A program made the translations under genes and the position numbers. The notes under the pieces were generated by a model. That model searched no databases. It was not told the origin of the DNA and was given only the letters and a program-made list of their open reading frames with translations. Below, in pieces: positions 3,354-58,031 of a DNA stretch of 64,000 bases (within the stretch, counting starts at the first letter, position 1; every line of letters starts with the position of its first letter). This DNA is from Candidatus Falkowbacteria bacterium RIFOXYC2_FULL_36_12 (GTDB lineage Bacteria; Patescibacteriota; Patescibacteriia; UBA11705): contig MFGJ01000006.1 of assembly GCA_001778235.1 (NCBI GenBank), positions 98,092 to 162,091 on the forward strand. The letters run 5' to 3'.

Positions 3354-4271
3354 ATGTATACATACAAGCATCCAAAACCAATAGTAATAAAGCTCACCGA
3401 TGAGCTTGGTTTTGATTTGCGACAAAAAGCGGCAGAGTATATTACTGCAAATCAAAATAGGACTGGCGCAGAACGAGGAAGTTCAGAGGAACAAGGGTTT
3501 GGTGCACTTGCAGAAATGGTTATACGGAACAAGCTGGGTATGTCAGAGATAAATTCAGAGGATCATCCTTTGGGATATGATCTTTTACTCCCATCTGGAA
3601 TTAAAGTTGATGTTAAATGTCGCGGTGGCGCACTACCATTTAAAGAGGAATATGAAAGTAGTGATGGTATTGCAAGAGAAGCAAAACATAATTTCTTTGC
3701 GCGACAGATGCATGACGAAAGACTGGACGCTGATATTTATGTCATGACCCACCTCGAAACTCCTAGCAAAAGAGAGCTTCCGGGCACGACTAGACAAAGA
3801 AAATGGGTACTTTATATCTGTGGTTGGGTCTCAAAGGAGCGAGTATCTAACGAGGGTGTTTACTTGCCACGCGGTTCTCTTACCGAACAAGGCAGAACGT
3901 GGTTCACTTATCGTGGGCAAGAAATAGAGTATTATAACCGCAACCTCAATGGATTAGAGTCAGTTCAGGATTTATTAAGTATTGAACAGATGGATGTCAC
4001 GAAAGACAGTGTCCACAAGGGCGACCTAAATCTTACTTCGGTTGATGCCATTAGAATTGCCTATGACCTTATTGGTCGTGGTGTGCTTTCGGAACAACAC
4101 CTGGCTTTTGTTCAAAATGAAACTGGCATAAATAAAATCGTGAAGCCAGTTTTACACTCAAATCAGTATTTTCATCTTTTACATTGGCTCAAAGAAAAAG
4201 GTGCGTTGACCGATAGCGAGATTGAAAAAGCGCGAAAAATTCTTCAAGAAGAGCCGTATAGTGGAATCTAA
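3354..4271 (+). CDS. putative Type II restriction endonuclease (PD-(D/E)XK-like)
   Basis: motif GYDLLLPSGIKVDVKCRG (D...D-V-K); convergent and 5 bp from a DNA methyltransferase; GC (~45%) above window background. Confidence 0.45.
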   Translation: MYTYKHPKPIVIKLTDELGFDLRQKAAEYITANQNRTGAERGSSEEQGFGALAEMVIRNKLGMSEINSEDHPLGYDLLLPSGIKVDVKCRGGALPFKEEYESSDGIAREAKHNFFARQMHDERLDADIYVMTHLETPSKRELPGTTRQRKWVLYICGWVSKERVSNEGVYLPRGSLTEQGRTWFTYRGQEIEYYNRNLNGLESVQDLLSIEQMDVTKDSVHKGDLNLTSVDAIRIAYDLIGRGVLSEQHLAFVQNETGINKIVKPVLHSNQYFHLLHWLKEKGALTDSEIEKARKILQEEPYSGI

Positions 4272-4276
4272 AATAG

Positions 4277-5365
4277 CTATAGTTTGTTACTAGCTGCTTT
4301 GTATTGAGTTTCAGCTTCTTTGATACGTTTTTTGGAAACTTCAATATAATCAATTTTGTGTTTCTTGAAGAGATAAACATCTTCGTTTTTTTCAATCCCA
4401 ATAAATTTTCTTCCCTCCAAAACCGCAGAGACTAGAAAGCTGCCGCTCCCGCAAGTATTATCTAGCACTACATCGCCTTCCTTCGTAAAAGTACGAATTA
4501 GATAACGACCAAGCTCCACTGGTTTTTGTGTCGGATGATAAACTTCACCTTCGCTCTCGGCGGTTTTGAAATAGACAACATCAGTTGGATATCTTTCGCC
4601 ATTACTTTTTACCTCAACGGTTTTGAAATCGCCATAACTTCCGGTAAATTGATCTTTTCTAAAACCCTTATTATAAGGCTCGCCATAAGTCATCTGAGGA
4701 TTATATGCGGGCTGACTCTTGTAAAAAATGCAAACATCCTCGTGTTTTCTCAACGGTTGTTTTTTGGCATTAAGAAAGTTTGTTGGTTTGGATTTTACCC
4801 AAGTGATTTTGTATTTAAATAATTTTGGATTAGATAACATCAGATTAGCAGTAAAAAGTCCTTGTCCAGTAAGAGCAATGACACCCTTATCTTTTATAAT
4901 ACGCTCGTAGTGGCTCCAAAGTTGGTCCATAGGGATAACGCTGTCCCAGTGATTTTGTGTGGTGCCATATGGCAAATCACACAAAATCATATCAACTGAT
5001 TTTGCAGGGATTTTTTTCATCACTTCCAAGCAATCTCCCTTAATGACATGATTCATGAAGTTGGAGATTGGTTTTTCGCTGTTTTTTATTGTTTTAGCTT
5101 TTACTTCCGCCACCCTGATATTTTTTCGTAAATACCAAAGACAGTAAGTGTTTACCTGCAACCCTTCTTGTTGAGCGCGTTGCTCTAACACTAGATAAGA
5201 GTCAGTTCCGAGTAAGTTGCGTAATTCATTACTTCCAAGATTAGCTATGATTTTATACAAATCTATATTTCTCTTGCCAAAAGCCAAAACAACGCCCTTC
5301 GTTTTCGGGTTTGTTTCTTTATGGTCTGAAAAATAGACTGCTTTGAAGATTTGGTTGCTTGCCAT
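4277..5365 (-). CDS. DNA methyltransferase, beta-class N6-adenine/N4-cytosine (motif IV before motif I)
   Basis: IKGDCLEVMKKIPAKSVDMILCDLPYG (motif IV region), HPTQKPVEL, DNTCGSGS (motif I); ~100 aa N-terminal extension of unknown function. Confidence 0.8.
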   Translation of the reverse strand: MASNQIFKAVYFSDHKETNPKTKGVVLAFGKRNIDLYKIIANLGSNELRNLLGTDSYLVLEQRAQQEGLQVNTYCLWYLRKNIRVAEVKAKTIKNSEKPISNFMNHVIKGDCLEVMKKIPAKSVDMILCDLPYGTTQNHWDSVIPMDQLWSHYERIIKDKGVIALTGQGLFTANLMLSNPKLFKYKITWVKSKPTNFLNAKKQPLRKHEDVCIFYKSQPAYNPQMTYGEPYNKGFRKDQFTGSYGDFKTVEVKSNGERYPTDVVYFKTAESEGEVYHPTQKPVELGRYLIRTFTKEGDVVLDNTCGSGSFLVSAVLEGRKFIGIEKNEDVYLFKKHKIDYIEVSKKRIKEAETQYKAASNKL

Positions 5366-9267: not shown

Positions 9268-10233
9268 TTAGAAATTTAGAGGGATATAATAAAATTCAAT
9301 GTCATTATAGTTGTTGGAATTGAATTGTTTGATGTAAAAAACTCGATTTTCTCCTTCTTTGAATAAGTCCATGGTATTTTTTTCTAGGTCAATGTGATAA
9401 ATGGCAGATTTCGCATTGTCAGCTGAAGACTCAACTGCGGCGAAAACTAAATTTTTACCATTTGGAGAAAAAGTTATGTCTCCATATTGATTGTACTTTT
9501 CTGGAACCAAATATTTGTGGACATCTTTGGATGCAAGGTTTAGAACAAAAATATTGTCTTCCCATCTGTAAGTAAGTAATTTTTCATCTACTGATAAATC
9601 TTCAAGAATACCTTTTGTGTCCATACCAAAAATCTGTTCAAATGATTTATCTCGAAGGTTGTATTTGTAGAGATTATGAGCGCCAACTCCGGAATAAAGT
9701 ATTAAACCACCAAAACCTAATGGTTCGGTGTAGAAGTAAACATTGTCTGCTGTTTGCTTGAAAATCCCCATGAACATACCATCATTATTAGTTTCAGCTG
9801 GGAATTCAAGTTGTTTGATAACAGTGTCACCATCTTTGAGGGTGAAGGATGTTGGAAATCCGCCTTTGGTTTCATCATAATTTCCTTGGATTGTTTCAAT
9901 TTTTATGTCTGCAATTGGAGGATTTTCTTGGAGTTTTTTTATCAATTCTGCGTTGGTGGTTGATTGTTCTTCAGTCAGAGCAAGGGCGTCTTTGGCTTGT
10001 TGCAGTTCAGATTGTAGCGTTGATTTTTCTTGTGAAAATTGATTGCCTTGCCAGAAGTAAACTCCGGCTCCAGCCCCACCGGCACCAATGATAAGAGCGA
10101 CTAGTCCGATAATAATAGTCAGCACTGTGCTGGTGCCACTAGAACTTGGTGATGTTTGAGGAATTTCTTCGTTTGGTAAAAGAGGTTTTTCTTCTCGACC
10201 AAGATTGTTTGGCATAGTGTTAATGTTATCCAT
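9268..10233 (-). CDS. membrane-anchored protein with coiled-coil and PD40/TolB-like beta-propeller repeats
   Basis: TM helix (GLVALIIGAGGAGAGVYFW), coiled-coil segment, SPNGKNLVF PD40-like repeat. Confidence 0.4.
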   Translation of the reverse strand: MDNINTMPNNLGREEKPLLPNEEIPQTSPSSSGTSTVLTIIIGLVALIIGAGGAGAGVYFWQGNQFSQEKSTLQSELQQAKDALALTEEQSTTNAELIKKLQENPPIADIKIETIQGNYDETKGGFPTSFTLKDGDTVIKQLEFPAETNNDGMFMGIFKQTADNVYFYTEPLGFGGLILYSGVGAHNLYKYNLRDKSFEQIFGMDTKGILEDLSVDEKLLTYRWEDNIFVLNLASKDVHKYLVPEKYNQYGDITFSPNGKNLVFAAVESSADNAKSAIYHIDLEKNTMDLFKEGENRVFYIKQFNSNNYNDIEFYYIPLNF

Positions 10234-27393: not shown

Positions 27394-27770
27394 TTATACC
27401 CTGAAATCCATCTTCGTTAAAACTTCGATGGACAAGCAAATTCAGAGCCTGCCCTGAATTTAGTTCAGGGGTGACAAGTGAGATGTGGTGACAAATTGGG
27501 AGATGCTGAAAACAGTACCCGGAGATCCTGAAACAAGTTCAGGATGACGAGTGTAGGGTTCAGGGTGACGAGTGTAGGGTTCAGGATGATGAGTGGTGTG
27601 TGGTCCCGTCACTCTGAACTTGTTTCAGAGTCTCCTGAATTGACATTAAAGTAAGGAATGAAAAATTGATTTGATTACAGAATTTAATTTGAATTTTGAA
27701 GAATTATACCCTGAAACCATGCACTATAAACAAGTTTAAGTGCGTGGCAAGCAAACTCACCGCAGGCAAA
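27394..27770. repeat. intergenic cluster of family B repeats (TATACCCTGAAA...TTCAGGGGTGACAAGTGAG; CCTGAA-N5-TTCAGG hairpins; 22-bp tandem GTTCAGGGTGACGAGTGTAGG x ~2.5)
   Basis: 27595-27720 ~85-90% identical to 52392-52510; 27702-27750 is reverse complement of 37352-37380. Confidence 0.6.
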
Positions 27771-30191: not shown

Positions 30192-30250
30192 TAATATTGT
30201 AACTGTTCTTTAACTTGGCGCGTTTCGCGCCATTGCCCAGGAGGGAAATC

Positions 30251-30829
30251 GTGAAGAGCTTCCGAATGGTGTCGCTGATCGTGTTGGTTCTGGTCGTGAC
30301 CGCGGGTGGGGGGCAGAAATGCTCCCCGCCGGTGCCGATGGAGGATACCTGCAACGAGATCGCGTCCGAGTGCAACTCGGACGACGACTGCTGTTCCGGC
30401 TTCTGCTGGACCAGCAGTGAGTTCTTCGGCTCGCAGAAGTCCTGCCAGCCGAACGACAATCTCCACTGCAGTCAGGACACTGACTGCAGGATTGGAGACT
30501 TCTGCGCCGAAGACGGCTTCTGCGTCCAGAACGCAGGACCGTGCGTTAGCGAATGGACGCAGTCGTGCAACATCGGCGGACCCGTCGATTTCACCGAGTG
30601 CGTTCGCGCTCGGAGCGGAGAACTTCACCAGCGGGTCTTCACCTGCAACAGTGGGTTGACCTGCGTGTTCATCTCGCAGGAGCAGGTACAGTGCCAGCCA
30701 GTCGTAGATCACGAGTACACGCAGTGTAGCGATGGCGCTGACTGCGCGGACGGTTCGTTCTTGTGCGAAAATGGTCGGTGCGAACTGGAATGTCGGGACG
30801 ACAGTGACTGTCGGACCGAGGAAGGCTAG
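30251..30829 (+). CDS. secreted Cys-rich repeat protein, N-terminal part up to in-frame TAG (high-GC island)
   Basis: GTG 30251 / ATG 30266 after SD; signal-peptide-like MVSLIVLVLVVTAGG; C-x4-C-x2-G-x-C-x2-G-x-C repeats; ~65% GC. Confidence 0.5.
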   Translation: MKSFRMVSLIVLVLVVTAGGGQKCSPPVPMEDTCNEIASECNSDDDCCSGFCWTSSEFFGSQKSCQPNDNLHCSQDTDCRIGDFCAEDGFCVQNAGPCVSEWTQSCNIGGPVDFTECVRARSGELHQRVFTCNSGLTCVFISQEQVQCQPVVDHEYTQCSDGADCADGSFLCENGRCELECRDDSDCRTEEG

Positions 30830-30952
30830 TTCTGCTACCGCTTCAGCGGGACCTGTCGGTACTCGGAGAACGGCCACTACTGCAACAGCTCGGACCAGTG
30901 TCCGGGCTACATCACCGAGGCCAACCAGTTCCCGATCAACAACCAGCTCTGT

Positions 30953-31675
30953 GTGCAGGGGGACTGTAGCACGAGCTACGGTCCCTGCGGTAACTCCAGC
31001 TACCAGATGTGCGATGACGAGAATAATGTCAACATCTGGAGCTGCGTCCAGACCAGCGAAGACGACTGGGTCTGGACGCATAGCATGTGTCCGGATGACA
31101 TGCGCTGTGTGGAATACGCACTCGGTCTTGGCATCTGTCAGTTCCAGGCCCTGCCGGAAAGCAAGATCATGGTTCAGCGCTTGAGTAGCAGTACGATGTT
31201 GATCTACGGCGCGGAGAACACCATGATCAGCTTCAACCTGATCAACTACCCGGTGGACCAGGAGAACAACGGCGAGACCGCTCTCGTGACATCGGTCACT
31301 ATTTCGGTGCTGATGTCGAGCGAAGAGTACAATCGCCTGTTGAATTGCAGCTTGAGGTCCTTGTCGTCGTGGCAGATGCTCGACTTCACGGATATCATCG
31401 AGTTGCGGAACAGAGATGACGGAAGTTCGTTCGCCGTCATCAACTTCTCGCTGACCAACGGCTACATGGTCCCGGCTGGAGTGAGTTCTCCTTTGACTGT
31501 TCAGTGCTTCATCGCGCCGAGCAGCCAGATCTACGAGCCCGAGGCAGTGCAATCCGGGTTCATTCCCAGCCTGGGGACCAGTCCTGGGACCGCGATCGTG
31601 GTCTACGGACGAGAGAGTGGTGAGCGCCTCCTGGTCGAGCCTGACCAGGATGTGTTCAACACCCTGACCAACTGA
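30953..31675 (+). CDS. C-terminal continuation of the same high-GC gene (same frame as 30251..30829; Cys repeats then ~200 aa Cys-poor domain)
   Basis: same reading frame as upstream ORF, only one TAG (30827-30829) between them; repeat register continues across the TAG. Confidence 0.5.
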   Translation: MQGDCSTSYGPCGNSSYQMCDDENNVNIWSCVQTSEDDWVWTHSMCPDDMRCVEYALGLGICQFQALPESKIMVQRLSSSTMLIYGAENTMISFNLINYPVDQENNGETALVTSVTISVLMSSEEYNRLLNCSLRSLSSWQMLDFTDIIELRNRDDGSSFAVINFSLTNGYMVPAGVSSPLTVQCFIAPSSQIYEPEAVQSGFIPSLGTSPGTAIVVYGRESGERLLVEPDQDVFNTLTN

Positions 31676-31870
31676 TCCTTCCTAAGAAGTTCTTTCATCC
31701 CAATTCAGGGACAACAAACCTTAAAACAGGAAAGCTTCCACTCAATGAGTCGGGAGTTTTTCTTTTTGAAATAGTAATATTGAAATATTGTGATAATGAA
31801 ATATTGGGTGATTGTATTGGAATGTTGACAAAACATCTGAACACGACAATAATATAATGAAAGAAAATAT

Positions 31871-50517: not shown

Positions 50518-52158
50518 GTGGTTATGACTTTGAAAAATGTAGTAGTTGATGGTCGACATTTGAGCATAAAGGATGTGATTGCTGTTGCTCGAGGTATTGA
50601 TGGTGAATATGCAAAAGTTGAAATTCTCCCAGCAACTAGAAAAATGATAAAGAAAATGCGTGATGGGATTGAAGCTCTATTGGACTCGAAAGTAATATAT
50701 GGAGTAAATACAGGTTGTGGTGCTCGTAAGCAAGAAATATTGAAAACAGAAGAGATTGAAGCCTATAATGAAAAATATGTCAAAGCGCATGCATGTGGTT
50801 ATGGCGATACCATGGACACCGAACTTGTTCGAGCTATGATGCTTATTCGTCTTAATTCATTTGCTGTTGGCAATTCTGGTATTCGTCTTGAATTGTGTGA
50901 TCAGATTCTTGCGTTATTGAATCATGAGATTACACCGGTAATTCCGCTTCATGGATCTGTTGGCGCGAGTGGTGACTTGATTCCTCTAGCATATCTAGGC
51001 AATGTTTTGCGCGCTACCAGAGGAGCTATGGTTTTGTATCAGGGAGAGATTGTAGATGCTTACAGTCTGTTTGTTAAACTGGGATTGAAACCTTTGGTAC
51101 TCCAAGCAAAAGAAGCAATGGGCCTGACTAATGGTGCAAATCTTGTATTGGCTTATGGTGTTTTTGCAGTGTACGACTCTGAAAATCTATTGACCGTTGC
51201 CAATGCAGCAGCAGCTCTTGGTCTTGAAGCCATTCGTGGTGAAACTGATGCTTTTAATAATCGTATACATCAAGCTCGGGGATTGAATGGTCATCCAGGA
51301 CAGATTAGTGTCGCTGAACAGATTATGAATATGTTACGAGGTAGTAAGAGATGTCAGCATGCAGCACAAGAATTTAAAATGCATCGTCAGTATGAATATG
51401 GTGATGAAAAGGGAAAGAAAAATGGTCCGCGAGTTCAAGACGCATATTCATATCGTTGTGTGCCACAAGTCCATGGTAGTGTAGATATTGTTTTGGGTAG
51501 AGTGCGTGAAACGATTGAAAGAGAACTTAATGCAGCAACTGACAACCCGCTAATTTTCGAAACTAGAGATGGTGATTTTGATGTTTTATCTGGTGGTAAT
51601 TTCCATGGGGAACCGCTTGCCTATGACCTCGATTACCTTGCAATTGCTATGTGTGGTTTGGCCAATATGTCAGATCGACGGTTTTATCAGTTGCTTGATA
51701 GTCATTCGAGTTATGGTTTGCCAAACGATCTTTGTGGAAATGCTGATCATGGCAATACCGGATTTATGATTTTGCAATATATGGTTGCTTCGGCTGTTAA
51801 TCGGTGTAAGATTTTGGCTAACCCTGCTAGCACTGACAGTATTCCGACTTCTCGTGGTCAAGAGGATTATGTAAGTATGGGAACAAATGCAGGTTGGAAG
51901 CTTCGTGAACAACTTTCTCATGTGCAAGCAGTGCTTGCAGCCGAGGTTATTGCTTCATGTCAGGCAATTGATCTTGGAAATGATGAATTGCCAGAACAAT
52001 TTCAGGAACTTGGTGCTGGTACACAAGTTGTTTATGATCTTGTACGGAAAAAAATTGATCGGATGAAGGGTGATAGATGGTTGCACCCAGATTTGGCAGA
52101 AATCATTGAATTGGTTGCTGGTAGAGATATTCGTCATGAGCTCAAAAGAGTAGTTTAA
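50518..52158 (+). CDS. hutH: histidine ammonia-lyase (MIO-dependent aromatic amino-acid ammonia-lyase family)
   Basis: MIO-forming GSVGASGDLIPLAYLG motif, 546 aa. Confidence 0.75.
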   Translation: MVMTLKNVVVDGRHLSIKDVIAVARGIDGEYAKVEILPATRKMIKKMRDGIEALLDSKVIYGVNTGCGARKQEILKTEEIEAYNEKYVKAHACGYGDTMDTELVRAMMLIRLNSFAVGNSGIRLELCDQILALLNHEITPVIPLHGSVGASGDLIPLAYLGNVLRATRGAMVLYQGEIVDAYSLFVKLGLKPLVLQAKEAMGLTNGANLVLAYGVFAVYDSENLLTVANAAAALGLEAIRGETDAFNNRIHQARGLNGHPGQISVAEQIMNMLRGSKRCQHAAQEFKMHRQYEYGDEKGKKNGPRVQDAYSYRCVPQVHGSVDIVLGRVRETIERELNAATDNPLIFETRDGDFDVLSGGNFHGEPLAYDLDYLAIAMCGLANMSDRRFYQLLDSHSSYGLPNDLCGNADHGNTGFMILQYMVASAVNRCKILANPASTDSIPTSRGQEDYVSMGTNAGWKLREQLSHVQAVLAAEVIASCQAIDLGNDELPEQFQELGAGTQVVYDLVRKKIDRMKGDRWLHPDLAEIIELVAGRDIRHELKRVV

Positions 52159-52261
52159 GTATCATTAAAATATGATACTTTTTTTGACAGCATGTCTGAA
52201 AGCATAGTCTGTCTCGACTGTACGATGAATTCGGTTAAGGTGAGTTAGCTGTTATTATTAG

Positions 52262-52640
52262 TTTCTATATGTAAATTTGTCACTCTGAACTTGCTTGTCC
52301 AGCGAAGTTTTAACGAAGATGGATTTCAGAGTATAAAGGGATGGCTTGATTATACCCTGAAATAAATTCAGGGTGACAAGTGGAGTGTGGTCCCGTCACT
52401 CTGAACTTGTTTCAGAGTCTCCTGAATTGACACTAGAGGATGGAATAGAAAATTAATTTGATTAAATAATTTAATCCGAATTTTGAAGAATTATACCCTG
52501 AAACAACCTGCCTTTCGGCAGACAGGATTCAGGGTGACAAGTGAGTATGTTGGTGGCGCGTATTACCACCCCAGAACTACCTTCATCAAGATTACGGCAG
52601 GCAAGCCCCCGTGATGTTTATGTTCGATGCTTTAAATATT
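52262..52640. repeat. large intergenic repeat cluster (family B in both orientations + family A)
   Basis: 52272-52345 reverse-orientation family B; 52358-52395 CCTGAA-N5-TTCAGG unit; 52392-52510 ~ 27595-27720; 52489-52625 ~ 42031-42175. Confidence 0.65.
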
Positions 52641-52768
52641 TAGTTTTGGTGGTGTACCTCCAAATCCGAGGCTATTAAACTTGATACGGTGGAAATAGAA
52701 ACCACCAGTTTGAGCTTATGGTTGTTTATTGACAGCGATTGATAATATTGTTAAATTGAAATAATAAT

Positions 52769-54208
52769 TTGCCCCTTGACAAACAAGCTGAAAGTATCAC
52801 CACCCGTCAAAGAGGAAAGGGAATGCAGATGAGTGAAAAAGTAAGTCCAATATTGGTTTCTGGTTTTAGAGATACAGATCCAGCTGACATGATTGCTAAG
52901 CAGAGACTTATTGATGAAATTATGGCTGTTTATAGATCTTTTGGTTTTGAACCCTTGGATACTGCTGTTGTTCAGTTGCAAACTGTATTATTTGAGGAGT
53001 TTGAATATACTGATATGGATTTTTTCCAAGTTGAAAATTCTAGAAAATTTTCCCATTCAGAAGCTCCACGAATGGCTCTTAGATTTGATTTGACTGTGCC
53101 TTTGGCTAGATATGTGGCAGCGAATATTGCGACCTTGCCCAGACCTTTTAAGCGAGCACAAATTGGCAAAGTTTATCGTGGAGAAAAAGCTCAAGCTGGT
53201 AGATATTGTGAGTTCTTGCAAGCTGATATTGATAGTTTGTTTACTGGTAGTGTTTATTCTGATGCTGAAATCGTGGCTGTGATGTTTACTTTGTTTAAAA
53301 AGTTGGGGATTGATAAATTCAAAATTGTTATTAATAATAGAATGATTTGCAATTTATTCCCTCAATATGCTGGATTTAACCCTGATGATTTGACTGCTGT
53401 GTTGAGAGTTCTTGACAAAATCAGAAAAGTGTCGAGAGAAGAAACAGTCAAGGGATTGTCACATAAGCAGGATGAAGAAAGTAAAAATCCAGTTAGATTT
53501 TTATCAAATAGTTCGATTAGGAAATTGATGTATTTGATTGAAAAACAAGGTAGTAATGAAGATTTGTTGATTTACCTGAAGGTAAAATATCAGCGAGCAG
53601 GTTTAGATACGACTGGAATTGTAGAGCTTGAAAAGATGTATGAATATTGCCGTATGATGGGAGTTGATGATAAAAATCTACAAGTTGATTTTGCCATGGT
53701 TCGAGGCTTGGCGTATTATACTGGGCCGATTTTCGAGACTTATCTAACGGAGTTGCCTGAATTTGGTAGTGTATTTTCAGGTGGAAGATATGATAATTTG
53801 GTTAGTAAATTTACAGAAGCTAATGTCCCAGCTACTGGAGCTTCAGTCGGAGTTGATCGTTTGTTTGAAGCTTTGAAACAATTGAGTTATCTTAAACCAT
53901 TAGGGAGCGTGGTTGATGTAATGATCATGGTTTTGGATAGATCTTACATGCCAGAATATTTGTTGATGGCTAAAGAAATAAGGGATAATGGATATAATGT
54001 AATGATTTATGATGGAGTTGATATGAGTTTTAAAACTCAACTAATGAGAGCAGTGACCAATGATATTCACTTCGTTGTAATTGTTGGTAAAGATGAAATG
54101 GATAAACAGGTAGTGACTGTGAAGGATTTGAAAACCAGAAAGCAATCAGTATTGTCTAGAAATGAATTTACTACCTACCATTTTCTCAATATAATTACTG
54201 GTACTTGA
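52769..54208 (+). CDS. histidyl-tRNA synthetase paralogue (full-length class II HisRS-like)
   Basis: motif 2 FKRAQIGKVYRGEKAQAGRYCEFLQADID, GLAYYTGPIFE, SGGRYDNLV; probable start MQMSEKV ~52823. Confidence 0.65.
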   Translation: MPLDKQAESITTRQRGKGMQMSEKVSPILVSGFRDTDPADMIAKQRLIDEIMAVYRSFGFEPLDTAVVQLQTVLFEEFEYTDMDFFQVENSRKFSHSEAPRMALRFDLTVPLARYVAANIATLPRPFKRAQIGKVYRGEKAQAGRYCEFLQADIDSLFTGSVYSDAEIVAVMFTLFKKLGIDKFKIVINNRMICNLFPQYAGFNPDDLTAVLRVLDKIRKVSREETVKGLSHKQDEESKNPVRFLSNSSIRKLMYLIEKQGSNEDLLIYLKVKYQRAGLDTTGIVELEKMYEYCRMMGVDDKNLQVDFAMVRGLAYYTGPIFETYLTELPEFGSVFSGGRYDNLVSKFTEANVPATGASVGVDRLFEALKQLSYLKPLGSVVDVMIMVLDRSYMPEYLLMAKEIRDNGYNVMIYDGVDMSFKTQLMRAVTNDIHFVVIVGKDEMDKQVVTVKDLKTRKQSVLSRNEFTTYHFLNIITGT

Positions 54209-54255
54209 CAGAATTAAAAAAGCTGTTAAGATGAATTTGCTAGGCAGTTTCTGTC

Positions 54256-54329
54256 GGGCCGTTAGCTCCAATTGGTAGAGCGGCGGATTGTGGTTCCGTT
54301 TGTTACGGGTTCGAATCCCGTACGGCCCA
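54256..54329 (+). tRNA. tRNA-His(GUG), non-canonical: no encoded G-1, A73, no encoded CCA
   Basis: acceptor GGGCCGT/ACGGCCC, anticodon stem GCGGA/TCCGT with loop TTGTGGT, T-loop TTCGAAT; nucleotide -1 is C, discriminator is A. Confidence 0.7.
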
Positions 54330-54333
54330 CTCC

Positions 54334-54368
54334 AGGCGAAATGAAAGATTTCATTTCGCCTGTTTTTT
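54334..54368 (+). terminator. rho-independent terminator after tRNA-His
   Basis: AGGCGAAATGAAA-GATTT-CATTTCGCCT followed by T7. Confidence 0.5.
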
Positions 54369-54479
54369 TACACTGAAATATGTTAATATTTTGCTATTGA
54401 CATTTTATCGAGTGTTTGATATTATAAATATGTTGAAAATATATTAAATGCAATTGAACAAGGAAGATGTCTAAAAACC

Positions 54480-54668
54480 TTCAATTTTAGCGAATCAGGG
54501 CCAGTGAAAGCCTGATATTGAATTTTTGGACTACACACCCTTGGAGCAGCTTGAGCAAAACTCAAGACGAGATTGTACTCGTAAAAATACACCCTGATGA
54601 TTGTCAGGCGCTTAATTAAAAGACTCTCTTTTCTTTAATTGCAAAACAATCAGGGAAAAGAGAGTTTT
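54480..54668 (+). ncRNA. candidate structured small RNA ending in a strong terminator
   Basis: consecutive hairpins (TCAGGGCC..GCCTGA; CTTGAG-CAAAA-CTCAAG; ACGAG-ATTGT-ACTCGT; CCTGA-TGATTG-TCAGG) then ACTCTCTTTTC...GAAAAGAGAGT + T6; no ORF. Confidence 0.25.
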
Positions 54669-54715
54669 TTGTATTAAAAAATATAAGCTTTTTAATAATA
54701 TTTATCAATAATTAT

Positions 54716-54792
54716 GGCGGCTGTAGCTCAGTTGGTAGAGCGCTGGTTTGTGGTACCAGTGGTCGCGGGTTCAAATCCCGTCGGTCGCCCCA
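54716..54792 (+). tRNA. tRNA-His(GUG), canonical bacterial type with encoded G-1, C73 and CCA
   Basis: G-1 (54716) opposite C73 (54789); acceptor GCGGCTG/CGGTCGC (two G-U), anticodon stem CTGGT/ACCAG with loop TTGTGGT, T-loop TTCAAAT. Confidence 0.8.
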
Positions 54793-54813
54793 GACTACGC
54801 ACTGTAAAGTGCT

Positions 54814-56136
54814 TTGTCTGGCAAGCCATTAAATTTTATGTCAGAATCATTATTACAACGAGCCAAGGGAGTCCGCGACTTTGGTCCTGAAGAAAAAATT
54901 GAGCGTGATCGTATTGTCGAGTCTTTGAAACAAGTATTCGAATCTTTTGGGTTTTCTCCAATTGAAACGCCGATTATTGAGCGCTATGAATTATTTGCCT
55001 CAAAGTTTGGACAAGGTGATCAATCTGACAGCATGAAAGAGAGTTTCAAATTGAAGGATCAAGGGTTGCGAGATTTAGTTTTAAGAAATGAATTCACAAT
55101 TCCATTTGCAAGGTATGTTGGAATGAATCCAAACCTTAGAATGCCTTTTAAACGATACCAAATAGGGCAGGTATTTCGAGATGGACCAATTAAACTGGGT
55201 AGATATAGAGAATTTTGGCAATGTGATGTGGATGTTGTTGGTAACCCTGATGTTTCAGCTGATACAGAAATATTGATGATTGCCCAAAAAGTTTTTGCTA
55301 AACTTGGTTTTGAGGTGGAGATTTATTTGAACAATAGAAAATTGTTGAATGCTGTACTTGATAAATATGAAATTAATAAAGAAATTGCGACTGATGTAAT
55401 TATTTCAATTGATAAACTTGATAAAATAGGTGTGGATGGGGTTGTTGAAGAGTTAAAAAATAAAAATATTGAAGAAGCAAAAGCACGAGAATTTCTACAA
55501 ATTTTGAATGTTACGGGAACAAATGAAGAAAAAATTGGAAAATTGCAGACTAGTTTGGGAAAGATTGATGCTTTACAGGAGATTGAGCAGACAATAAATC
55601 TGATGCCTAATCAAGAAAATATTGTGTTTTTACCGTCATTGGCGCGAGGTTTGGCATATTATACTGGCAATGTGTTTGAGATATTTTTAAAAGATAAAAA
55701 TGTTATGAGTTCTGCGGTTGGTGGTGGTGGTAGATATGACAAAATGATTGGTGGATTTTTGGGAAAAGATGGAGATATTCCGGCAGTTGGAATAAGTTTT
55801 GGACTTGAGACTATTTTGGATGTGATTAATAAAACAGGAATTTCTGAAATGAAAAAAACTGTAACTCAAGTTTATGTTTTGGCAATGGGGGAAGAAAATA
55901 TGAAATCAGCCATTGAGACCGCTGACCAAATTCGGAATTTAGGGATTAATGTTGATATTGATTTGCAAAACAGAAAGTTGAAGAAAAATTTGGAATATGC
56001 CAATGCTCTTGAAATCCCATATGTAGTAATAATTGGTTCAGATGAAATTGAAAAAAAGCAAATTACACTTAGAAATATGAAAGATGGGTCACAAAAATCA
56101 ATAAAACCTGAAGAAATAAAAAATTATTTAAATTAA
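54814..56136 (+). CDS. hisS: histidine--tRNA ligase
   Basis: motif 2 FKRYQIGQVFRDGPIKLGRYREFWQCDVD, GLAYYTGNVFE, GGGGRYD; anticodon-binding C-terminal domain; likely start MSESLL ~54838. Confidence 0.85.
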   Translation: MSGKPLNFMSESLLQRAKGVRDFGPEEKIERDRIVESLKQVFESFGFSPIETPIIERYELFASKFGQGDQSDSMKESFKLKDQGLRDLVLRNEFTIPFARYVGMNPNLRMPFKRYQIGQVFRDGPIKLGRYREFWQCDVDVVGNPDVSADTEILMIAQKVFAKLGFEVEIYLNNRKLLNAVLDKYEINKEIATDVIISIDKLDKIGVDGVVEELKNKNIEEAKAREFLQILNVTGTNEEKIGKLQTSLGKIDALQEIEQTINLMPNQENIVFLPSLARGLAYYTGNVFEIFLKDKNVMSSAVGGGGRYDKMIGGFLGKDGDIPAVGISFGLETILDVINKTGISEMKKTVTQVYVLAMGEENMKSAIETADQIRNLGINVDIDLQNRKLKKNLEYANALEIPYVVIIGSDEIEKKQITLRNMKDGSQKSIKPEEIKNYLN

Positions 56137-56250: not shown

Positions 56251-56868
56251 TTGTACATTAAAATCAAACCGCTAAACCCACAGGCCAGCAATGACTGGCG
56301 GGAGGTGAAAATGGAGTTTTTGAGAGATTATCGGTTGCCAAAAGGATTAAGATTGGAAGAACTGGATTTAAGTAAATCAGATGATTTAGAGGCTTTAGCT
56401 CGCTTTTATTGTGAAGTTTGGAAAGAACCACCGTGGCTTGAATTTCACTGGACTTACGACGCTGTGATTAAATACATTCTTGAAACAAGTCAAAAAATTG
56501 CTTCAATTTGGTTGTTGATAAAAAATCAAGCAAATGAAATTGTGGCTTTTGCCCTAGGTTATGGAATAGATTTCAAAGATTTGGAACAAATCGCCAATAG
56601 AAAAGACGCTGCATTTTATTTCGGAGAAAAACCCATGTTTTATGATGCTGAAGTAGCTGTAATGCCAACCTATCGTAAACAAGGGCTTGCAACAGTTCTG
56701 ATTAGGGCAAGAATTGATTTTGCCAGATTTCATGATTTAAAAGTTGTGATTGCGCGAACTAAAGCTCCAAATGCAATTAGAGCTATGACTAAAATTGGTT
56801 TCTTCCCAACTACATTTACTGATGGATCTGATCCTGAAAGGGTTTATTGGCGGTTTGATATTTCGTAG
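56251..56868 (+). CDS. GNAT-family N-acetyltransferase-like protein
   Basis: acetyl-CoA-binding-like motif VMPTYRKQGLATVLI; possible start at 56312. Confidence 0.5.
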   Translation: MYIKIKPLNPQASNDWREVKMEFLRDYRLPKGLRLEELDLSKSDDLEALARFYCEVWKEPPWLEFHWTYDAVIKYILETSQKIASIWLLIKNQANEIVAFALGYGIDFKDLEQIANRKDAAFYFGEKPMFYDAEVAVMPTYRKQGLATVLIRARIDFARFHDLKVVIARTKAPNAIRAMTKIGFFPTTFTDGSDPERVYWRFDIS

Positions 56869-56915: not shown

Positions 56916-58031
56916 ATGAAAAGTGAAGAATTAATAAGAAAATTAGTTTCATTTGATACTCAATGTATCAAAAGCAACAAGGAAATTGTAAAATATATTT
57001 CAAGTCTTTTTCCACCTGAAATTGTTGAAATTATTCCGATTAAAAAGAATAAGATTATTGTTTATAATTTGATATTAAGTTTTAAGGGTAAATCAAATAA
57101 TTCGCCAATAATTTTCAGTGGTCATACCGATACTATCCCATTATCAGGTGAATGGACCAAAGATCCTTTTAAAGGTGAAGTAATTAATGGCAATATTTTC
57201 GGCTTGGGAGCTGTTGATATGAAAGGTGGTTTGGTCGCAATGATTTTGACTGCTTTGAAATTGGTTGGAACAACTCCAGAAAATGATGTTTATTTTTTGT
57301 TTGATGCAGATGAAGAATGTAATTGTGTTGGCGGGAAATATTTTGCAGATAATTTTAATCCTGAAAATAATAAGTGTAGGATAGTCATTGGTGAACCAAC
57401 TGATGGTAAACTTGAAATTGGACAAAAAGGTGTTATTGAATTTAGAGTAACTTATAGAGGTAAATCAATTCATGCAAGTAAAGCAACTCGAGAAAAAAAC
57501 AAAAATTTTAATGCTATCAGCAAGGTTTATTCAGCTTTGCAGTTAATTGATATAGAAGAGCAACGACTGGCTAAAATGATTGATAAAAATTTTGGGTCGC
57601 CAACAATAGCAATTTGTCAAATAAATGGCGGGAGTGCTGCGAATGTTATTCCTGATTCTTGTAGTTTTGTTTTCAGTAGAAGATTGTTACCGAGTGAAGA
57701 TATTGAAAAAGTAAAGGAAAAATTGAGAAATATGTTTGTCTCGGTAGATAGTCGTGTACAAATTGAAGAGTTGTTGATTGGGGATTCAAATCTGTTGTCA
57801 GAAAATGATAATTTATATATGCAAGCATCAGAAATTTGTAACAATTTATTAGGTAAATGTGAAAAAGATATTTCAGCCGGTTGGACACAGGCTGGCTATT
57901 ACAAAAAATGGGGTGAATGTTTGATTTGGGGTCCTGGAAACAAAGGACAAGCTCATAGTGTTGATGAATTTATTGAATTAGCACAAATTGATAAAATGGC
58001 TGGATGTTATTTTGCTCTGACAAAAATTTAG
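56916..58031 (+). CDS. M20-family metallopeptidase/deacylase (ArgE/DapE-like)
   Basis: FSGHTDTIP, GAVDMKGG, DADEE metal-binding motifs. Confidence 0.75.
   Translation: MKSEELIRKLVSFDTQCIKSNKEIVKYISSLFPPEIVEIIPIKKNKIIVYNLILSFKGKSNNSPIIFSGHTDTIPLSGEWTKDPFKGEVINGNIFGLGAVDMKGGLVAMILTALKLVGTTPENDVYFLFDADEECNCVGGKYFADNFNPENNKCRIVIGEPTDGKLEIGQKGVIEFRVTYRGKSIHASKATREKNKNFNAISKVYSALQLIDIEEQRLAKMIDKNFGSPTIAICQINGGSAANVIPDSCSFVFSRRLLPSEDIEKVKEKLRNMFVSVDSRVQIEELLIGDSNLLSENDNLYMQASEICNNLLGKCEKDISAGWTQAGYYKKWGECLIWGPGNKGQAHSVDEFIELAQIDKMAGCYFALTKI

Follow-up and report, generated by a model that had tools for sequence, protein, structure and literature searches.

The analysed DNA, a stretch of 64,000 nucleotides from contig MFGJ01000006.1 of Candidatus Falkowbacteria bacterium RIFOXYC2_FULL_36_12 (positions 98,092 to 162,091; hereafter the window), carries two genes for histidyl-tRNA synthetases (HisRS) and between them two genes for tRNA-His(GUG), all on the + strand. 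These two HisRS/tRNA-His pairs stand side by side and appear to differ in their recognition rules: the tRNA of one pair has a guanosine at position -1 (G-1), that of the other has not. ARAGORN called five tRNA genes in the window, including tRNA-His(GTG) at 54256-54330 and at 54717-54792, and the Rfam tRNA model (gathering score 29) matched copy 1 with 61.9 bits and copy 2 (54717-54789) with 67.6 bits, which confirms both tRNA-His(GUG) genes proposed by a first-pass annotation of the bare sequence. The upstream gene hisS1 (52823..54208) encodes a bacterial-type HisRS of 461 aa (TIGR00442, HGTP_anticodon; named histidine--tRNA ligase in its 461-aa form at NCBI), the downstream gene hisS2 (54838..56136) a HisRS of 432 aa which belongs to a family shared by the Candidate Phyla Radiation (CPR) and DPANN archaea. 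In both proteins the tRNA-synt_His core is accompanied by an HGTP_anticodon domain, and both are full-length; against TIGR00442 (hisS, cut-off 286.75) HisRS1 reached 330.4 and HisRS2 370.3 bits, and the two are 29% identical to each other. The first-pass annotation had correctly taken both flanking genes as near-full-length, with starts at 52769 (479 aa) and 54814, which have to be replaced by the ATG codons at 52823 and 54838; the resulting lengths agree with the NCBI proteins.

Since the sequence derives from metagenomic data and HisRS1 and HisRS2 differ in their phylogenetic affinity, an assembly or binning chimera of two organisms had to be weighed. However, the order hisS1/tRNA/leader/tRNA/hisS2 was assembled independently in at least five groundwater samples (contigs of 320-520 kb) and recurs in several Falkowbacteria metagenome-assembled genomes (MAGs); the HisRS2 sequence recurs unchanged in Candidatus Falkowbacteria bacterium RIFOXYD2_FULL_35_9, that of HisRS1 in three such MAGs. 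The genes of the window are ordinary chromosomal ones (DnaG, RpoD, Fur, ZnuABC, GreA, CysRS, TruB), GC content and GC skew are uniform over the HisRS/tRNA-His region, and the double set is also present in five other lineages. Repeated independent assembly, chromosomal gene content and uniform composition together exclude a chimera, the probability of which we regard as practically nil.

Copy 2 of the tRNA genes (tRNA-His2, 54716..54792) is the canonical bacterial form, as had been claimed and as direct reading of the sequence confirms: G-1 (54716) stands opposite C73 (54789) in an 8-bp acceptor stem, and CCA is encoded (54790-54792). G-1, C73 and CCA were present in nine of nine CPR lineages in which a tRNA-His lies upstream of a HisRS2-type gene. 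These and all following lineage counts rest on loci (numbered with the prefix L) among the matches listed in scans of genome and metagenome contigs; absence refers, for relatives, to the flanks fetched (up to 10 kb each side) and, for the genome itself, to the 64-kb window. In archaeal-looking members of the HisRS2 family the preceding tRNA-His has G-1:C73, with CCA not encoded. In L008 (~3900-3920) and L172 (1-160) the intact tRNA-His2 gene is followed at a short distance by incomplete repeats of its 3' end (e.g., gaatcccgtcgtccgcccca); they resemble the scars of elements which integrate into tRNA genes.

Copy 1 (tRNA-His1, 54256..54329) has C at -1 (54255), the acceptor stem GGGCCGT/ACGGCCC with G1:C72, the discriminator A73 (54329) and a 9-nt D-loop. 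It is directly followed by CTCCA, so that no CCA is encoded, which makes it the sole tRNA of the window's five without one. An intrinsic terminator (54333..54369; 13-bp stem at 54333-54362 with six GC pairs, T7 tail) closes the hisS1/tRNA-His1 unit, and a hairpin with T run also lies 3' of the orthologous tRNAs in L006, L008, L009 and L170-L173. The earlier description of this copy (C at -1, A73, no CCA, terminator behind) therefore holds in full. Upstream of hisS1 lies a promoter-like site (52729..52757, TTGACA-17-TAAATT with TG), and a possible second one (54205..54232, TTGACA-16-TAAGAT with TG) overlaps the stop codon of hisS1; both were assigned solely by their match to the consensus (10 of 12 positions each), and tRNA-His1 may just as well be co-transcribed with hisS1 as be transcribed from its own promoter-like site.

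The neighbouring tRNA of HisRS1-type genes, where there is one, is in every case a tRNA-His; it begins 12-100 nt downstream and has a terminator behind it. None of the ten lineages with such a linked gene (window, L006, L008, L009, L010 and L170-L174) has G at -1; the position is C in two and T in eight. We refer to this form of tRNA-His without G-1 as dG-1. The discriminator N73 is A in six of the ten genes, C in two, G in one and U in one, CCA is encoded in four, and G1:U72 was found in L170 only. The D-loop measures 9-10 nt in seven and 8 nt in three of them (window: 9 nt in copy 1, CAAUUGGUA, and 8 nt in copy 2). Over the ten lineages, 13 of the 21 pairs of the cloverleaf show compensatory changes, and tRNA-His1 therefore belongs to a functional tRNA family and is not a decaying copy. 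Judged by these substitutions, the family is under structural selection while N73 varies freely.

HisRS1 is of the type that is generic for Patescibacteria (39-43% identity) and falls, among the matches listed, in a large bacterial family with enzymes of Clostridia, Planctomycetota, Xanthomonadales and alpha-proteobacteria. A search of genome contigs with the single HisRS1 sequence gave no match, and one with the HisRS1 alignment retrieved generic bacterial HisRS, with no Falkowbacteria among the matches listed; these served as controls. The catalytic residues R113, R121, Q127, R259, Y264, R287 and R311 (E. coli numbering) are kept in HisRS1 and are present in all of its best 120 relatives. 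An assignment as HisZ was tried and rejected: the protein attained 156.9 with TIGR00443 (cut-off 271.65) and passed the hisS model, and the HGTP_anticodon domain and the catalytic residues are intact, in agreement with the first-pass view that the first HisRS-like protein is not a HisZ.

The enzyme features which bear on recognition of G-1 differ from those of ordinary bacterial HisRS. Connolly and co-workers reportedly described, in 2004, Arg116, Gln118 and Arg123 as an 'arginine cluster' contacting G-1:C73. The motif-2 loop of HisRS1, YRGEKAQAGRYCEF, retains Gln118 and contains Lys116 as well as Cys123 (Arg123 in E. coli); Cys at 123 was found in 13 of the 120 relatives. The G-1 pocket itself is formed by a Gly-Gly loop, Gly72'Gly73' in HisRS of T. 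thermophilus and Asp-Asp in Caulobacter (PMC4357726). In HisRS1 the pocket Gly is replaced and about nine residues are inserted, so that the segment reads ..NSRKFSHSEAPR-MALRFDLT (..FSHSEAPR before MALRFDLT). Within this region, which is variable in the alignment, the pocket Gly is missing in every dG-1-linked enzyme (NPENEA in Thermoanaerobaculia, DEDADW in Rhodobacterales, ..ENLDE in L010), and ordinary bacterial relatives hold [K/H]-G-x-x-D just before LxLRFDLT, including the enzyme of a Bacilli MAG (L061) which adjoins a canonical G-1 tRNA-His. HisRS1 is accordingly predicted, from sequence comparison, to act independently of G-1. The likeness of the copy 1 pair to the alpha-proteobacterial type, which had been drawn before, does not extend to its details: because HisRS1 has Gln118 and not Gly, and the tRNA G1:C72 and not G1:U72, the pair represents a different solution from that of the alpha-proteobacteria.

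A separate observation concerns MAGs of Thermoanaerobaculia, whose tRNA-His has T at -1, G1:U72, A73 and a 9-nt D-loop, i.e., the alpha-proteobacterial pattern; these and similar cases are located at L022 (9868-9944), L027 (9567-9643 and 9817-9893), L026, L089 and L014. The HisRS adjoining the Thermoanaerobaculia tRNAs have Asp at motif-2 position 118 and have lost the pocket Gly, and similar enzyme changes were seen in Vicinamibacteria, Gloeobacterales and one HisRS of Paceibacterota. The loss of G-1 may be wider in bacteria than so far described.

Relatives of HisRS2 occur with 53-63% identity in Falkowbacteria, Kuenenbacteria and Parcubacteria and with ~50% in Woesearchaeota. With NF009085 the protein scored 455 bits and did not reach the cut-off of 540. 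A search of metagenome contigs with the HisRS2 alignment revealed, among the matches listed, one close relative (L090), archaeal members and the adjacency of HisRS and lyase genes described below. Of 120 family members, 119 have the pocket Gly and all have Arg123, represented in the window by KDQG-LRDLVLRNEFT and GRYREF; the motif-2 loop FRDGPIKLGRYREF is divergent. On these residues HisRS2 is predicted to depend on G-1.

Both pairings are conserved. Behind the HisRS1-type gene stands a dG-1 tRNA-His in ten of ten lineages with an adjacent tRNA, and in front of the HisRS2-type gene a G-1:C73-CCA tRNA-His in nine of nine. Six lineages hold both pairs, and in L006, L008, L170, L171 and L172 both HisRS types lie within ~8 kb. 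Across the six dual genomes the pairwise identities of HisRS1 and HisRS2 are correlated (r = 0.68) with a common nearest-neighbour pattern and means of 45% and 63%, respectively, HisRS1 evolving ~1.5x faster. Since the two enzymes co-diverge over six lineages, the coexistence is old and goes back to long co-inheritance, which contradicts the former suggestion of a recently acquired pair. The other suggestion of the first-pass annotation, that two recognition systems coexist here, gains support from the conserved linkage and from enzyme features that match the published determinants of G-1 recognition.

The segment between the two tRNA genes is a conserved RNA leader. It had been described as an ORF-free structured segment with its own terminator at 54480-54668; structure and terminator are real, and the extent has to be widened to 54397 to ~54680. 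It begins with a sigma-70-type promoter (54397..54425, TTGACA-17-TATTAT with TG, 11 of 12 consensus positions), the best of the region, which is matched by a TTGACA...TATAAT pair at the equivalent place in L090, L176, L177 and L178. Behind the promoter follow ~250 nt of structured RNA (z = -7.0), conserved in the window and in the same four loci, always in front of tRNA-His(G-1) and hisS2. A long 5' hairpin (54452..54550), which we designate Stem I, consists of a base helix CAAGG/CCUUG, a specifier-type loop with CAC, additional helices, an AGCGA bulge and an apical loop ..AGUGAAAG; on the 3' side of its internal loop RNAalifold revealed the invariant CUA-CAC-A (CAC at 54534-54536, A at 54537). 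In the alignment of the five sequences 98.3% of the Stem I cells are paired and 15 of 24 pairs show compensatory changes, and none of 500 shuffles was as good; our own covariance model gives scores of 92-116 bits. By its sequence and predicted fold, Stem I has the architecture of a T-box Stem I with the His codon CAC and the usual following A as specifier. Three conserved hairpins occupy the positions of Stem II, IIA/B and III (54551..54611; alignment and RNAalifold), the first of them with compensatory changes according to RNAalifold, and CCCUGAUGAUnGUCAGG at 54592-54608 is invariant. The putative expression platform is an intrinsic terminator (54617..54671), a long hairpin AAAAGACUCUCUUUUC...GGAAAAGAGAG followed by U6, which is kept in all copies.

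The membership of this divergent leader in the T-box family is not established. In searches of ~300 nt, Rfam RF00230 (gathering score 93) aligned Stem I of L176 (32.8 bits, E 7.7e-6) and L177 (26.1 bits, E 3.7e-4), skipping the T-box core in both; the L090 copy gave no match with this model, and at gathering threshold Rfam found only tRNAs in the whole window. No convincing conserved antiterminator or alternative pairing of the terminator 5' arm emerged from truncated RNAalifold runs and inspection by eye. The window leader contains no His leader peptide, its sole small ORFs being MSKNLQF* and MLKIY* without His. At the leader's position L006, L008, L170 and L171 carry His-run leader peptides (MIIIHEIHHIHECPR, MKKVNGQSHHHHHSLQ, MKKVTAIHHHHHHQ and MNKVIAHHHHHTNQ; coordinates 2132-2179, 3634-3684, 3946-3990 and 1852-1896, respectively) together with terminators, and the presence of these peptides in relatives indicates that the downstream unit is controlled by His-tRNA charging.

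Two further details of the leader were noted. Its 5' end (54444-54460, AUUAAAU and a small hairpin) resembles a direct repeat of the terminator loop (54633-54656, UUUAAU and a small hairpin); both elements change together in L090, L176, L177 and L178, AUUAAA is complementary to UUUAAU, and they may be part of an unconventional antiterminator. Between tRNA-His2 and hisS2, L090 (~9820-9850), L176 (~5330-5360), L177 (~9900-9935) and L178 (9812-9840) possess a hairpin with T-run which is absent from the window. This hairpin holds CCUGACUAUC, which is perfectly complementary to GAUAGUCAGG, an invariant sequence in the third hairpin of the leader, and could take part in a long-range RNA-RNA interaction or act as a second regulatory terminator.

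We read the locus as two complete, separately transcribed histidine-charging units with different tRNA identity rules, which coexist stably, and assign a probability of roughly 0.6 to this interpretation. Unit A (52729-54369) comprises a promoter-like site, hisS1, tRNA-His without G-1 and a terminator, with no recognisable attenuator; unit B (54397-56136) comprises a promoter, the T-box-like leader (CAC) with its terminator, tRNA-His with G-1:C73-CCA, and hisS2. As no G-1:C73 pair lengthens the acceptor stem of tRNA-His1, RNase P would cut its precursor at +1, and maturation would be completed by trimming of the 3' trailer and addition of CCA. HisRS1, with its pocket filled and part of the 'arginine cluster' lost, would charge this tRNA without reading G-1 or N73, most likely via the GUG anticodon, and HisRS2, with the pocket kept, would need G-1. 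By analogy to Caulobacter and E. coli, the two pairs are probably largely orthogonal. Accumulation of uncharged tRNA-His would lead to read-through of the leader terminator and hence to more tRNA-His2 and HisRS2. The cell would thereby dispose of one apparently unattenuated (constitutive) and one starvation-inducible route to His-tRNA for the same codons, which could be of advantage to an auxotroph that, in addition, breaks histidine down or scavenges it; both units are set among genes for histidine handling, namely a lyase related to histidine ammonia-lyases (HAL), an M20 peptidase and a GNAT acetyltransferase. Gene anatomy, conserved pairings, co-divergence of the enzymes, their residues and the leader structure are what the sequences show directly, whereas the G-1 independence of one pair and the dependence of the other, their orthogonality, a T-box response and any advantage of retaining both are inferred.

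Several points weigh against this interpretation. The G-1 independence, the orthogonality and the expression of both units are deduced from sequence. HisRS1 keeps Gln118, a residue which covaries with the loss of C73 in alpha-proteobacteria. Addition of G-1 by Thg1, considered in the first-pass annotation, appears unlikely because the discriminator varies (A, C, G, U) and no Thg1 Pfam domain was found among the 55 window ORFs scanned (nearly all of those with at least 120 aa), but this search covers only 64 kb of the genome. The window copy of the leader gave no RF00230 match at E<=10, in searches of 52.1-54.9 kb and of 54.42-54.72 kb, which returned tRNAs only, and inspection of the five aligned copies yielded no conserved UGGN/T-box bulge (AUCAGGG in some, AUCUGGG in others). 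With neither a UGGN antiterminator nor an RF00230 match in the window, the leader counts as a putative sensor of charging. Motif 3 of HisRS2 (55771-55821) reads GISFGLET, the invariant Arg of class II being replaced by Thr. Finally, the closest syntenic relatives L176, L177 and L178 show TruB ... leader-tRNA-hisS2-GNAT-M20 and lack the lyase-hisS1-tRNA block at the locus; either some Falkowbacteria can do without the second pair or it lies elsewhere in these three genomes.

The altered motif 3 leads to the question whether one member of the locus is inactive, be it tRNA-His1 as a pseudogene, HisRS1 as a HisZ-like protein or HisRS2 as a non-catalytic sensor. Non-catalytic HisRS paralogues are known (HisZ, GCN2), HisRS2 is devoid of the motif-3 Arg, and tRNA-His1 is the one window tRNA without CCA. 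However, the motif-3 Arg is missing in 115 of 120 members of the HisRS2 family (P0121-P0240; T 63, V 23, P 19, A 10, R 5), Woesearchaeota included, and the remaining active-site residues are invariant in all 120. Because of this family-wide invariance HisRS2 is assumed to be active, and catalytic competence is taken on the same grounds. In addition, HisRS2 is always accompanied by a canonical tRNA-His and a presumably His-responsive leader. The readings of HisRS1 as a HisZ-like regulator and of tRNA-His1 as a pseudo-tRNA were rejected in view of the intact HisRS1 residues and anticodon-binding domain, the failed hisZ model and the stems of tRNA-His1 with their compensatory changes in ten lineages. 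An inactive member is thus very improbable. The first-pass annotation had ascribed motif 2/3 signatures to both paralogues, which is correct for HisRS1, whereas motif 3 of HisRS2 is incomplete (GLET). Its label of the downstream gene as the canonical hisS must even be inverted: HisRS1 is the ordinary bacterial type with the full catalytic set, and HisRS2 belongs to the CPR/DPANN-archaeal family without the motif-3 Arg.

The arrangement in L176, L177 and L178 implies that the lyase-hisS1-tRNA block of the window is an insertion or rearrangement relative to them. Together with L090, where unit B also stands alone, and with the faster evolution of HisRS1, this would fit a displacement caught midway, in which the ancestral dG-1 pair of Parcubacteria-type CPR is being lost, the G-1 unit was received from or exchanged with DPANN, and the coexistence has no function. 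The HisRS2 family is indeed common to Woesearchaeota (~50% identity), archaeal-style tRNA-His without CCA precede its archaeal members, and DPANN-derived TyrRS and TrpRS with archaeal identity rules have been published for CPR (PMC5370408). On the other hand, absence from a 20-kb locus does not mean absence from the genome, and catalytic residues and compensated tRNA stems are retained over six lineages whose HisRS2 are only 54-81% identical, which speaks for long purifying selection on both pairs. We therefore consider a functionless transition unlikely and retain the reading as two stably coexisting units.

The genes around the two units are conserved as well. Upstream of hisS1 lies the gene of the HAL-like lyase (50518..52158), a 4-methylideneimidazole-5-one (MIO) enzyme with a GASGD motif; it scored 518 bits with Lyase_aromatic and, just under the respective cut-offs, 474 with hutH and 488 with NF006871, and its best solved relatives are the HALs 7tqr and 1gkm (E 1e-86 to 1e-83). 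Downstream of hisS2 follow a GNAT acetyltransferase (56311..56868; Pfam Acetyltransf_1, gene call on L001) and an M20 deacylase/peptidase of the ArgE/DapE family (56916..58031; Peptidase_M20 and M20_dimer; TIGR01910 208 bits, cut-off 217.6). The lyase gene adjoins HisRS2 or HisRS1 in L006, L008, L170-L174 and at least 14 more distant metagenome loci, M20 adjoins HisRS genes in L006, L008, L170, L173, L174 and L176-L178, and GNAT and M20 together accompany them in L006, L170, L174, L176, L177 and L178. Lyase, M20 and GNAT stand alongside HisRS genes in L006, L008, L170-L172 and L174, in some cases with HAD, LOG-like and PRT-like genes, and L173 combines lyase and M20 with HisG, HisE and HisI.

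These neighbours would permit another explanation, namely that hisS1 and tRNA-His1 supply His-tRNA for a tRNA-dependent, non-ribosomal reaction of the adjacent enzymes (GNAT, M20, lyase, HAD, LOG-like, PRT-like) and that the different identity keeps this pool separate. The recurrence of lyase, M20 and GNAT with HisRS1-type genes in distant CPR (window, L006, L008, L170-L174), the ~1.5x faster evolution of HisRS1 together with the unconstrained discriminator base, and the ability of close relatives to manage without the block at this locus are compatible with it. But cloverleaf and T-arm of tRNA-His1 are those of an ordinary elongator, the GNAT protein is of the classical acetyl-CoA family (Acetyltransf_1) and not of the Fem, L/F-transferase or MprF type, and a role in providing and breaking down histidine, such as that of the histidine decarboxylase (HDC) island in Lactobacillus, would account for the neighbours equally well. 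Moreover, in L174 and L010 the HisRS1-type gene encodes the sole HisRS in the fetched stretch and is for this reason maybe the housekeeping enzyme there. Provision of a non-ribosomal pool accordingly appears quite unlikely, and we prefer two units which both serve translation of the same codons.

Further observations were made on the surroundings of these genes. The HisRS-lyase pair occurs at L111, L112, L114, L115, L121, L124, L131, L134, L140, L151, L159, L165, L167 and L169, some of them from human gut; the HisRS of these at least 14 loci are 35-40% identical to HisRS2 and nearer to it than to HisRS1, and the lyases are 32-39% identical to that of the window. With at least 14 distant metagenome loci the pair is conserved well beyond CPR. 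The CPR contig of L173 (1-14917) carries two HisRS1-type genes, one of them followed by a dG-1 tRNA-His, interleaved with HisG, HisE, HisI, a HAL-like lyase, two M20, two LOG-like genes and HAD, a larger histidine-themed cluster.

The spacer upstream of hisS1 (52160-52820) was considered as a riboswitch or attenuator of this gene and dismissed, as its repeats belong to a dispersed genome-wide family and are not locus-specific. The intergenic repeat TTCAGGGTGACAAGTG is present in 11 copies with at most three mismatches (0.34 expected), located at 27465-27595, 37326, 42076, 42241, 52274, 52367, 52528 and 62570; at 27.5 kb four copies follow each other with a spacing of 21 nt, and the 660-nt spacer upstream of hisS1 contains three, which there form hairpins with ATTATACCCTGAAA. 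The repeat looks REP/MITE-like. Elsewhere in the window, a sharply bounded GC-rich island (30200-31680; GC 0.53-0.62, genome ~0.33) contains on its + strand, behind a good promoter, a frame of 474 codons (30251-31676) for a Cys-rich repeat protein with signal peptide; it has no Pfam or Rfam match and is broken by one in-frame TAG (30827-30829). The frame could represent a pseudogene or a site of recoding, or a gene that arrived by horizontal transfer. An overlapping ORF of 453 aa on the minus strand of the island is judged spurious, having no homologue among 1.8 billion representatives.

To our knowledge, G-1 of tRNA-His is among the most conserved tRNA identity marks and is used by almost all life, and we know of few lineages that have given it up, the whole cell or compartment having switched each time. 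If our interpretation is correct, tRNA-His without G-1 would maybe be common in CPR and Acidobacteriota, e.g., Thermoanaerobaculia. Provided that both rules share one cytoplasm, the locus would exhibit a viable intermediate of an identity switch, and natural orthogonal HisRS/tRNA-His systems would be directly useful for genetic-code engineering. The exchange of a T-box-like RNA without canonical discriminator for a His-run leader peptide in front of one operon in sister lineages would be a rare natural switch from one type of attenuation, RNA-based or ribosome-based, to the other. A more far-reaching version holds that two mutually orthogonal pairs, G-1-dependent and -independent, work in one cytoplasm of free-living style, that dG-1 is widespread in Parcubacteria-type CPR and marks one more independent loss of G-1, the third beside those in alpha-proteobacteria and some protists, that the two pools of His-tRNA are used differently (for instance in constitutive and in starvation-induced translation, or in translation and in a side reaction of the cluster that depends on tRNA) and that the leader is a new T-box variant without NCCA-sensing bulge; this we put forward tentatively, as a possibility with less than even odds.

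Among known systems, dG-1 tRNA-His with co-adapted HisRS has been described from alpha-proteobacteria and a few protists (PMC3064791, PMC4338351). The alpha-proteobacterial tRNA is characterized by A73, G1:U72 and a 9-nt D-loop with extra U20a (PMC3064791), and in the motif-2 loop of Caulobacter HisRS Gln118 is changed to Gly (PMC4338351). The window pair resembles this system in the missing G at -1, in A73, in the length of the D-loop (9 nt) and in the lost glycine pocket of HisRS, and the mutual orthogonality of dG-1 and G-1 pairs shown in vitro for Caulobacter and E. coli (Yuan et al., 2011, PMC3064791) would be expected for it, too. It differs by G1:C72 in place of G1:U72, by a family N73 of A, C, G or U in place of a fixed A73, and by Gln118 of HisRS1, where Caulobacter and Rhodobacterales (WRNEKPGPGR) have Gly, as well as by the change of Arg123 to Cys. 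Furthermore, the alpha-proteobacterial pair is the only system of its cell, whereas the dG-1 pair of the window coexists with a G-1 pair. What seems new here on sequence grounds is that G-1 and pocket were lost without the alpha-proteobacterial signatures (G1:U72, fixed A73, Gly118), in CPR and beside a G-1 pair. The literature searched contained no report of CPR tRNA-His without G-1, of a CPR T-box or of dual HisRS identity in a bacterium, which is no proof of novelty; two orthogonal HisRS/tRNA-His pairs in one bacterium have been proposed as an engineering goal only (Yuan et al., 2011, PMC3064791).

The only known organism with two HisRS types keeps them in different compartments; it is Acanthamoeba castellanii, with a noncanonical cytosolic and a canonical mitochondrial HisRS (Rao and Jackman, 2015, PMC4338351). 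Here, too, a G-1-independent and a G-1-dependent enzyme occur in one organism, each with its own tRNA-His; however, these systems are separated by membranes, and the pairs of the window are encoded 500 bp apart and would work in one bacterial cytoplasm. The TyrRS and TrpRS of CPR derived from DPANN (Mukai et al., 2017, PMC5370408) likewise represent aminoacyl-tRNA synthetase (aaRS) families common to CPR and DPANN with matching tRNA identity features, but there the archaeal type was described as the cell's system, whereas in the window the archaeal-affiliated pair stands beside a bacterial-type pair. With the T-box RF00230 the leader shares the base helix, a specifier loop with codon and following A, an AG-type bulge, a distal loop, a downstream terminator and an aaRS gene. 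It differs in having no UGGN bulge, in scores of at most 32.8 against 93 bits (none for the window), in a tRNA as first downstream gene and in its occurrence in CPR, for which no T-box was found in the literature searched. Among described systems, the HDC island of lactobacilli comes closest to the neighbourhood: a second hisS, preceded by a His (CAC) T-box, is found there together with a tRNA, a histidine-catabolic enzyme and an M20 peptidase, and this additional gene has been proposed to safeguard charging during histidine consumption (PMC5313534). A decarboxylase takes the place there of the HAL-like lyase of the window, and the hisS genes share 57% nucleotide identity with no difference in identity rules reported (PMC5313534), whereas the two HisRS of the window are 29% identical, have a dedicated tRNA each and display opposite identity features.

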